DNA of 32,000 bases from a virus, in the IMG/VR virus record IMGVR_UViG_3300045988_123082, positions 1-32,000 of that record; one strand, 5' to 3'. The notes under the pieces were generated by a model that was not told where the DNA came from, made no database searches, and saw only the letters and a list, made by a program, of their open reading frames with translations. A program made the translations under genes and the position numbers. This document shows positions 30,396 through 31,016 of the stretch, one piece after another. The first letter of the stretch is position 1. Each line of letters opens with the position of its first letter.

Positions 30396-30716
30396 TTACA
30401 AGTCACTAAATATTCTTAAAAACTTTTTATATTCTTCTTCTGAATTTAGATAAAAATTATTACATCCATCCATGATATCTTCATAGTTGCAGGTCTCAAT
30501 TTCATTATCCAAAAACTTTCTATATAAACTTTTGAATTGCGATTCACAAATATGTTTCTTATGAAGTCTTACTCCTTGTACATCTCTTATAAGCGTTTCA
30601 CCTGATTTATAAACACATACAAAATAATCTTCCCATTGTACAAATAAACTTTCTGTATTATGAATCAGAAAAAACTTTTTCACTTCTGTTAAAAGCTTTG
30701 ATAATTTGTATTTCAT
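30396..30716 (-). CDS. paralog 1 of the small-protein family (106 aa from the internal start)
   Basis: The internal ATG 30716 is preceded by TTTTAGGAGTAAAGAAA, the same RBS context as paralog 2. The reading frame stays open upstream into the tail-tube fragment. Confidence 0.6.
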   Translation of the reverse strand: MKYKLSKLLTEVKKFFLIHNTESLFVQWEDYFVCVYKSGETLIRDVQGVRLHKKHICESQFKSLYRKFLDNEIETCNYEDIMDGCNNFYLNSEEEYKKFLRIFSDL

Positions 30717-31016
30717 TTTCTTTACTCCTAAAAACTTTTTCTCAGATACACTTTTTCTTCCTGCTATAGTAAATTCATCAATTCTTTCTGAATACATTTC
30801 AATACTTCCGGAATATCCATTATTACTGTTCGTTGTAAAATATGCAGTGCTGTCTGCATAACATGTATTTGTATCTCCTTCCGGGTCTAATGTAAATGAT
30901 TTAAAACCTTCCCATGCTACAGGTGTACCATACGTAATATCTCCACCTTCTTCATGCTCAATAGGAACTACATATACATTTTTAATTTCATATTTAACTT
31001 TGTTTGCATCTTCCAT
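30717..31016 (-). pseudogene. diverged copy of the major tail protein N-terminal domain (~74 aa), truncated and in frame with paralog 1; remnant or genuine fusion
   Basis: ATG 31016 follows AGGAG. MEDANKVKYEIKNVYV..ITYGTPVAWEGFKSFTLDPEGDTNTCYADSTAYFTTNSNNGYSGSIEM aligns with residues 1-73 of 18296..18940 (38 of 47 identical in the best block, hand count). There is no stop before paralog 1. Confidence 0.6.

Follow-up and report, generated by a model that had tools for sequence, protein, structure and literature searches.

A tail tube fragment fused in frame to a small accessory gene in a Holdemanella-type prophage is probably a recombination scar

Introduction

Hendrix, Hatfull and colleagues reportedly described mosaicism in lambdoid phages and mycobacteriophages, in which illegitimate recombination is said to leave mosaic junctions and gene remnants in the genomes of temperate phages. 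Core structural proteins of tailed phages are represented in profile collections by families such as phrog_88 ("major tail protein"), and tail tube proteins have in addition a precedent as triggers of bacterial immunity, as the activator of the defence system DSR2 is a phage tail tube protein (PMC10981675, PMC11087589).

The window considered here (the whole stretch of 32,000 nt that was analysed) is a low-GC siphophage prophage, with genes read on the minus strand, and its sibling family consists of Holdemanella-type siphophage prophages. A first-pass annotation of the window pointed to an open reading frame (ORF) in which the N-terminus of the tail tube protein is joined to a small accessory protein. 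It cited the DSR2 precedent correctly, although no link between that precedent and this locus was found, and proposed that the product could be a decoy or sponge, a dominant-negative tube cap, a sensor-bait fusion, or simply a scar of recombination that is in frame by accident. The comparisons reported here, which extend from the breakpoints of the ORF to its allelic state and selective regime in sibling phages, make the last of these readings the probable one.

Materials and methods

Protein searches return intact ORFs only, and the survey of homologous loci was therefore redone at the DNA level, both with frame-independent peptide patterns on IMG/VR and with the upstream lipoprotein gene as an anchor in a metagenome collection and IMG/VR. 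The slot downstream of this anchor was censused in 70 unique sibling loci, for which a minimum of 84% identity in the lipoprotein and of 700 nt of sequence beyond it was required. Pairwise dN/dS was calculated by the Nei-Gojobori method (NG86) over codons 2-74.

Results

Genes for terS, TerL, portal, capsid and an amidase endolysin were identified in the window with Pfam, and the resident tube gene has head-tail genes and the tape measure gene as its neighbours (Table 1). The tRNA gene lies just past the amidase endolysin gene, at the lysis end of the prophage, and its neighbourhood is likely to be the attachment site. Sibling contigs share a layout that begins with integrase, replication module, dUTPase and many small genes, continues with the 91-aa lipoprotein gene, the fusion and one to four small genes, and then passes through a convergent cluster on the opposite strand to terS, TerL, portal, protease and capsid. 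The convergent cluster adjoins the small-gene array and, in the window, occupies 27362..29122 on the plus strand; its genes there differ from those of siblings, several of which (L002, L005, L145) carry an ArdA anti-restriction gene in it, and the cluster represents a further accessory block that is variable. A stretch of about 1.3 kb (26002..27362) on the upstream side of the packaging genes holds no ORF of at least 90 aa, and siblings carry a 68-aa HTH_8-like gene where the window has this ORF-poor stretch.

Table 1. Positions of the mosaic ORF, its constituent pieces and other features of the window
Feature	Position	Strand	Basis or remarks
tRNA gene	731..803	-	68 bits
Amidase endolysin	1007..2083	-	Pfam
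1277-aa ORF in tape-measure position	17634..13801	-	Position
Resident type A major tail protein	18296..18940	-	phrog_88, E = 4.7e-44; in structural module
Small array gene 4	29627..29307	-	ORF listing and sequence comparison
Small array gene 3	29933..29646	-	ORF listing and sequence comparison
Small array gene 2	30375..29956	-	ORF listing and sequence comparison
Mosaic ORF, 206 aa	30396..31016	-	Gene X start, type B tube codons ~4-74, gene X internal codons, paralog 1
Paralog 1, 106 aa, with own AGGAG (30729..30725) and ATG (30716..30714)	30396..30729	-	Same RBS and start in free-standing sibling paralogs
Gene X internal remnant (~25 codons, the earlier "linker")	30730..30804	-	Alignment to L086 gene X; ends in GAGAAAAAGTTTTT
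Tube-derived segment, codons ~4-74	30795..~31007-31017	-	207/222 nt identity to type B tube L145 10001-10222
Lipoprotein 3' end and translation start shared with gene X loci	31008..31055	-	AGGAG 31028..31024, ATG 31016..31014, then GAAGAT
91-aa lipoprotein gene, conserved anchor just upstream of the slot	31027..31302	-	DUF5052-like N-terminal half

The ORF is situated about 12 kb from the resident tube gene, upstream of the terminase genes and between the lipoprotein gene and small accessory genes; it is thus placed outside the structural module, in which a tube gene would lie between the head-tail joining genes and the chaperone and tape-measure genes. As described in the first-pass annotation, it possesses its own ribosome-binding site (RBS) and ATG, and it stays open across the RBS (AGGAG) and the ATG of the small gene that comes next. 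The ATG of the ORF lies 7 nt past its AGGAG; a longer ORF call (30396..31040, minus strand) begins at an upstream TTG. BLASTP aligned residues 1-74 with residues 1-73 of the resident tube (49 of 74 identical, 66%; E = 4e-32), and an earlier hand count of 38 identities among the 47 residues of the best block agrees with this alignment. The DNA, previously judged by eye to be about three-quarters identical to the resident tube gene, is identical at 161 of 219 positions (73.5%), and tube homology does end at ...GYSGSIEM. While both proteins match phrog_88, the resident tube does so over profile positions 17-225, and residues 1-75 of the ORF only over positions 17-90 of 291 (E = 5.2e-14); a complete tube domain, of about 200 aa or more, is absent from the ORF, in which homology stops at residue 74. 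Beyond the tube, the ORF has no PADLOC, Pfam or PHROG match, and a PDB sequence search with the resident tube returned no meaningful match.

The four small genes, which had been taken for a single set of tandem paralogs, are indeed four in number but form two pairs: genes 1 and 2 are about 60% identical, and genes 3 and 4 match each other with E = 1e-11, while gene 3 matches gene 1 only with E = 0.15. Neither the paralogs nor their plus-strand neighbours gave a match in Pfam, PHROGs or PADLOC.

Sibling phages are dimorphic for the tube, with a type A of 214 aa (that of the window) and a type B of 218 aa, which are about 76% identical; in the comparison of the two types (18296..18940, loci L148-L234), the N-terminal 30 residues and the C-terminus vary and residues 34-74 are almost invariant. 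The tube part of the ORF is a piece of type B, to which it is 93% identical in DNA and 85% in protein, as compared to 66% protein identity with the resident tube. The initial description of an old or foreign copy was hence right as to its foreign source; an old age is contradicted by a DNA divergence of about 7%, which indicates a fairly recent copy. Likewise, 26 codons do follow the tube part, as had been reported, but they are not a linker: blastn found this sequence at +447 after the lipoprotein, inside another gene, here called gene X, in 40+ loci that lack the fragment.

Gene X (L086 2787..3359 and about 28 sibling loci; the window does not contain the whole gene) encodes a predicted membrane protein of about 190 aa from a GTG start located 14 nt past the lipoprotein stop, is found more often than any other cassette in the slot disrupted by the tube fragment, and has no match in Pfam, PHROGs or PADLOC. 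The possibility that gene X is itself a diverged tube homolog was rejected (BLASTP E = 4.8), as the two have only the microhomology YF.T...G.IEM in common. Given the position of the gene X remnant and the lack of homology between gene X and the tube, the tube piece has therefore replaced most of gene X.

Base-level alignment with the type B tube (L145) and gene X (L086) located the breakpoints of this truncated tube copy. The mosaic follows the gene X locus up to ..TGGAAGAT, the type B tube from ATGG.AGATGCAAAC through ATTGAAATG, and gene X again from TATTGAAATG to GAGAAAAGTTTTT. Its start region, which also begins gene X in siblings without the fragment, aligns locally to L086 over 48 nt with 4 mismatches. 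The left junction of the tube segment falls within the microhomology TGG.AGAT, the junction between tube and gene X is a 10-nt overlap microhomology, TATTGAAATG (30804..30795), and that between gene X and the paralog has the microhomology AAAAGTTTTT, the gene X remnant reading …IEMHSERTGEFTIAPRKSVSEKSF with one additional A ahead of GTTTTT; one junction of the ORF falls on the recurrent motif AAAGTTTT. Each piece is in its native frame, so that a chance agreement of only two junction phases is needed, for which the odds are about 1 in 9; the second of these phases is set by the length of an A/T run, and T3, T4 or T5 is found at the equivalent junctions of other phages. Other chimeras exist in the same slot: P0039 joins the N-terminus of gene X in frame to a paralog, and in P0027 and the L006-type alleles the fragment is preceded by a start of the paralog-3 type.

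From these junctions we infer that, in one lineage, illegitimate recombination at the short microhomologies TGG.AGAT and TATTGAAATG would have swapped gene X codons ~4-140 for type B tube codons ~4-74, with a co-resident or co-infecting sibling phage as the putative tube donor, and that a second deletion, at the AAAAGTTTTT microhomology, would have brought what was left of gene X (~25 codons) up to the RBS of paralog 1. Repeated junction sequences carry a general risk of misassembly, and it could be argued, with nothing further in its favour, that the mosaic was created by faulty assembly of the window; the same mosaic and junctions, with allelic variation, recur in many independent assemblies (ENA, Logan, IMG/VR, NCBI), which rules this explanation out and leaves it a probability close to nil.

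Another explanation is that the fragment matters as DNA, by providing a homology patch for recombination between the accessory region and the type B tube gene. Contig L147, in which the lipoprotein gene and an N-terminus of the fragment type are linked to a whole type B tube gene and the first part of the chaperone gene, would fit this explanation, but it is a single 1.9-kb MEGAHIT contig that may be chimeric over a 35-nt identical stretch, no second example was seen among about 125 anchored loci, and such recombination would delete or invert the head module; we regard a role of this kind as extremely unlikely. In L147 (1..1873; ena:ERZ27263788:k141_108331) the fragment-type N-terminus is the allele with a 13-codon deletion, and the contig represents either a chimeric assembly over the 35-nt identity or a real rearrangement or recombination intermediate.

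The census of sibling loci showed that the slot downstream of the lipoprotein gene holds interchangeable cassettes, namely gene X, an unrelated 107-aa gene or nothing, followed by the small-gene array. A complete ~190-aa gene X and then a paralog were present in 28 of the 70 loci, the unrelated 107-aa gene and then a paralog in about 17, and a paralog directly after the lipoprotein in 13. Only 10 loci (14%) contained the tube fragment, which is accordingly absent from about 86% of these lipoprotein-anchored siblings. Matches of the lipoprotein to DUF5052 (positions 3-74 of 199) and phrog_2316 (1-89 of 191) are confined to the N-terminal half of each profile; because its 91 aa are kept in all siblings, it is a stable short form and not a fresh truncation.

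A protein search, which recovers intact ORFs only, identified about 31 clusters of full-length in-frame homologs (P0001-P0031; 193-214 aa, 67-98% identity), one of which is named Holdemanella biformis, along with free-standing paralogs (114-141 aa) and full tubes. No match was obtained in a distant DNA search of phage GenBank with positions 29200-32000, and a scan of GTDB representative genomes gave no confirmed locus. When alleles were retrieved at the DNA level, 6 of 12 distinct alleles were intact fusions (L008, L009, L012, L041, L099 and L026, with L009 using a GTG start inherited from gene X) and 6 were broken. The first-pass annotation had stated that stops or frameshifts at homologous loci would indicate a decaying pseudogene, and such lesions were found: L016 has a nonsense mutation at codon 36 and a frameshift, L057 lacks the start codon and has a displaced fragment, L013 and L066 have a change from T5 to T4 that uncouples the fragment and creates a TAG in the RBS, L039 is uncoupled by another frameshift, and the L010 allele (five loci) has a TAA nine codons past the internal ATG. 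The latter stop is shared by L010, L011, L040, L100 and L103, follows …MKHKLPKFL encoded from the canonical ATG of the paralog, and truncates the fusion and the usually annotated paralog alike; these loci have either a dead gene or a conserved domain that is started anew from a Met further on.

Even so, the fragment keeps a good RBS and start codon, 10 of the 12 alleles retain an open frame of 78 codons or more, and several of the indels located before the internal ATG preserve the frame. A deficit of nonsense changes, as a sign that the ORF is maintained, was not significant (P(at most 1 of 52) = 0.26). In L005/P0008, a deletion removes the RBS and ATG of the paralog, and the paralog domain could therefore be made there only as a fusion. 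Along with the many intact full-length homologs, this in-frame allele without an internal start could suggest that the fusion is a new two-domain protein, in which the N-terminal extension, under weak or diversifying selection, alters where the paralog domain is localised, how stable it is or which partners it binds; a paralog domain that is itself weakly constrained (dN/dS 0.62) would be compatible with such selection. However, half of the alleles retrieved independently of frame are uncoupled, coupling hangs on a variable homopolymer length (T3, T4 or T5) and the paralogs are normally free-standing. AlphaFold predictions also weigh against a two-domain protein, as the fusion had a mean pLDDT of 45.8, too low for the model to be of use, with no confident fold and with values below 50 for residues 1-102, which are predicted to be unstructured. 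The paralog modelled alone reached a pLDDT of 64, and Foldseek searches with this model against PDB and BFVD gave nothing better than E = 0.2. Overall, we judge a new two-domain protein to be very improbable. What this stretch most likely yields as a functional product is the 106-aa paralog, for which translation would begin at the internal RBS and ATG; the fusion protein or a tube peptide of 80-95 aa, if made, would be a by-product.

The selective regime of the fragment differed from that of its donor. Values of dN/dS were 0.23 among type B tubes, 0.19 among type A tubes and 0.25 between the two types; by contrast, they were 0.95 among fragment alleles and 1.17 between fragments and type B tubes, such that the purifying selection typical of the tube family is not seen in the fragment. 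Distinct changes in the fragment lineage comprised 41 nonsynonymous and 11 synonymous changes, as compared to 33 and 40, respectively, in the tubes (Fisher p = 2e-4), and the resulting ratio in the fragment (3.73:1) is close to the neutral expectation (3.56:1). The block AWKGAKSLTLDPEGDTNTYYADNTAYFTTN.NNGYSGS.EM (residues 34-74) is essentially invariant in 42 distinct tube sequences; fragment alleles show replacements W35L, K36E, A38F/I/L, L41F/V, Y52C/G, Y68C, S69F and G70E as well as a 13-codon deletion within this block. Evolution of the tube fragment is thus indistinguishable from neutral, and the piece has evolved neutrally since its capture and is being lost. Control genes from the same loci had dN/dS values of 0.48 (lipoprotein) and 0.62 (paralog domain); these accessory neighbours are weakly constrained themselves.

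These data bear directly on the idea that the tube fragment, alone or fused, acts as a decoy that soaks up a tube-sensing host sensor or poisons assembly of the type B tube of superinfecting phages. Tube proteins do have a precedent as immune triggers, the fragment has its own RBS and ATG, with an open frame in most alleles, and it is located in an accessory region beside the convergent cluster, which in siblings includes ArdA anti-restriction. Moreover, the fragment derives from type B and is found mostly in type A phages: 7 of 8 typed fragment-bearing viral contigs have a type A tube, and the sole type B phage has a dead fragment, an association that is not significant because there is only one type B phage (n=1). 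On the other hand, a decoy or dominant-negative protein would be expected to conserve the surface that its target recognises, and in the fragment alleles tube-invariant residues have been substituted or deleted, at a dN/dS of about 1. Nonsense and start-less alleles occur, most siblings do without the fragment, only about a quarter of the tube profile is covered, no confident fold is predicted and the tube is the sole PADLOC, Pfam or PHROG match. A decoy or assembly poison of this type therefore appears highly unlikely. None of the three functional proposals of the first-pass annotation (decoy or sponge, dominant-negative cap, sensor-bait fusion) gained positive support, and decoy, dominant-negative and new-fusion roles remain unlikely even when they are all taken together. 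A dN/dS near 1 is still compatible with a loosely constrained role, since neighbouring accessory genes evolve fast too, and in a weaker variant the fragment may encode a peptide with a loosely constrained anti-phage or anti-defence role.

The motif AAAGTTTT occurs 21 times in the window, as compared to 5.6 expected, with 13 copies in the 1.1-kb small-gene array (29665..30738, minus strand) and further copies at 31406..31413 and 31692..31699. Copies occupy two reading frames (2 and 0) as well as RBS regions between genes. AAG-TTT encodes all 14 Lys-Phe dipeptides of the array but 4 of the 18 in the rest of the window (Fisher p = 7e-6, with paralogous positions not being independent). Three junctions sit on the motif, i.e., those between gene X and the paralog, at the 13-codon deletion of L005 and at the left of the L006-type alleles. 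The motif may be a crossover microhomology or a regulatory site. That the array is a cassette-shuffling hot spot, with AAAGTTTT maintained as a crossover point and the tube piece as one visible product, is a tentative and rather unlikely reading, and the motif-rich array is possibly worth a separate study.

Discussion

Our analysis indicates that the feature is real but ordinary: it is in all probability a scar, left in an accessory slot that is hypervariable and composed of a piece of a sibling tube gene and the remains of a disrupted gene for a membrane protein. The suggestion in the first-pass annotation that the ORF might be merely an in-frame recombination scar is supported by breakpoints in microhomologies, by the neutral evolution of the tube piece and by its patchy presence in siblings.

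The locus illustrates that a good RBS, structural homology and dozens of full-length homologs can still accompany a neutral scar. A search of protein databases alone would suggest a conserved fusion, because broken alleles cannot be returned by such a search; it was a frame-independent DNA census, combined with dN/dS against the donor gene, that settled the question. In addition, the base-level breakpoints document that pieces of core structural genes move between sibling gut prophages into accessory slots.

With regard to the known systems, the likeness to DSR2 and to DSAD1, a phage anti-defence protein, is limited to the general theme of tube sensing by bacterial immunity; DSAD1, unlike the product of this ORF, is no tube fragment, and no DSR2-like or DSAD1-like gene was detected here. 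Residues 1-74 of the ORF are clearly homologous to the phrog_88 major tail proteins; unlike these tubes, however, the ORF is partial, lies outside the structural module and has lost purifying selection, and it is not a functional member of the family. The closest correspondence is with the phage mosaicism model, as a foreign piece has been inserted at microhomologies of a few bases into a hypervariable accessory ("moron") region, and as this piece is patchily distributed in close relatives, neutral and decaying. The present case differs from that model in two respects: all junctions keep one frame, so that annotation yields a 206-aa "fusion protein", and the donated piece comes from a sibling phage's core structural gene rather than from an accessory gene.
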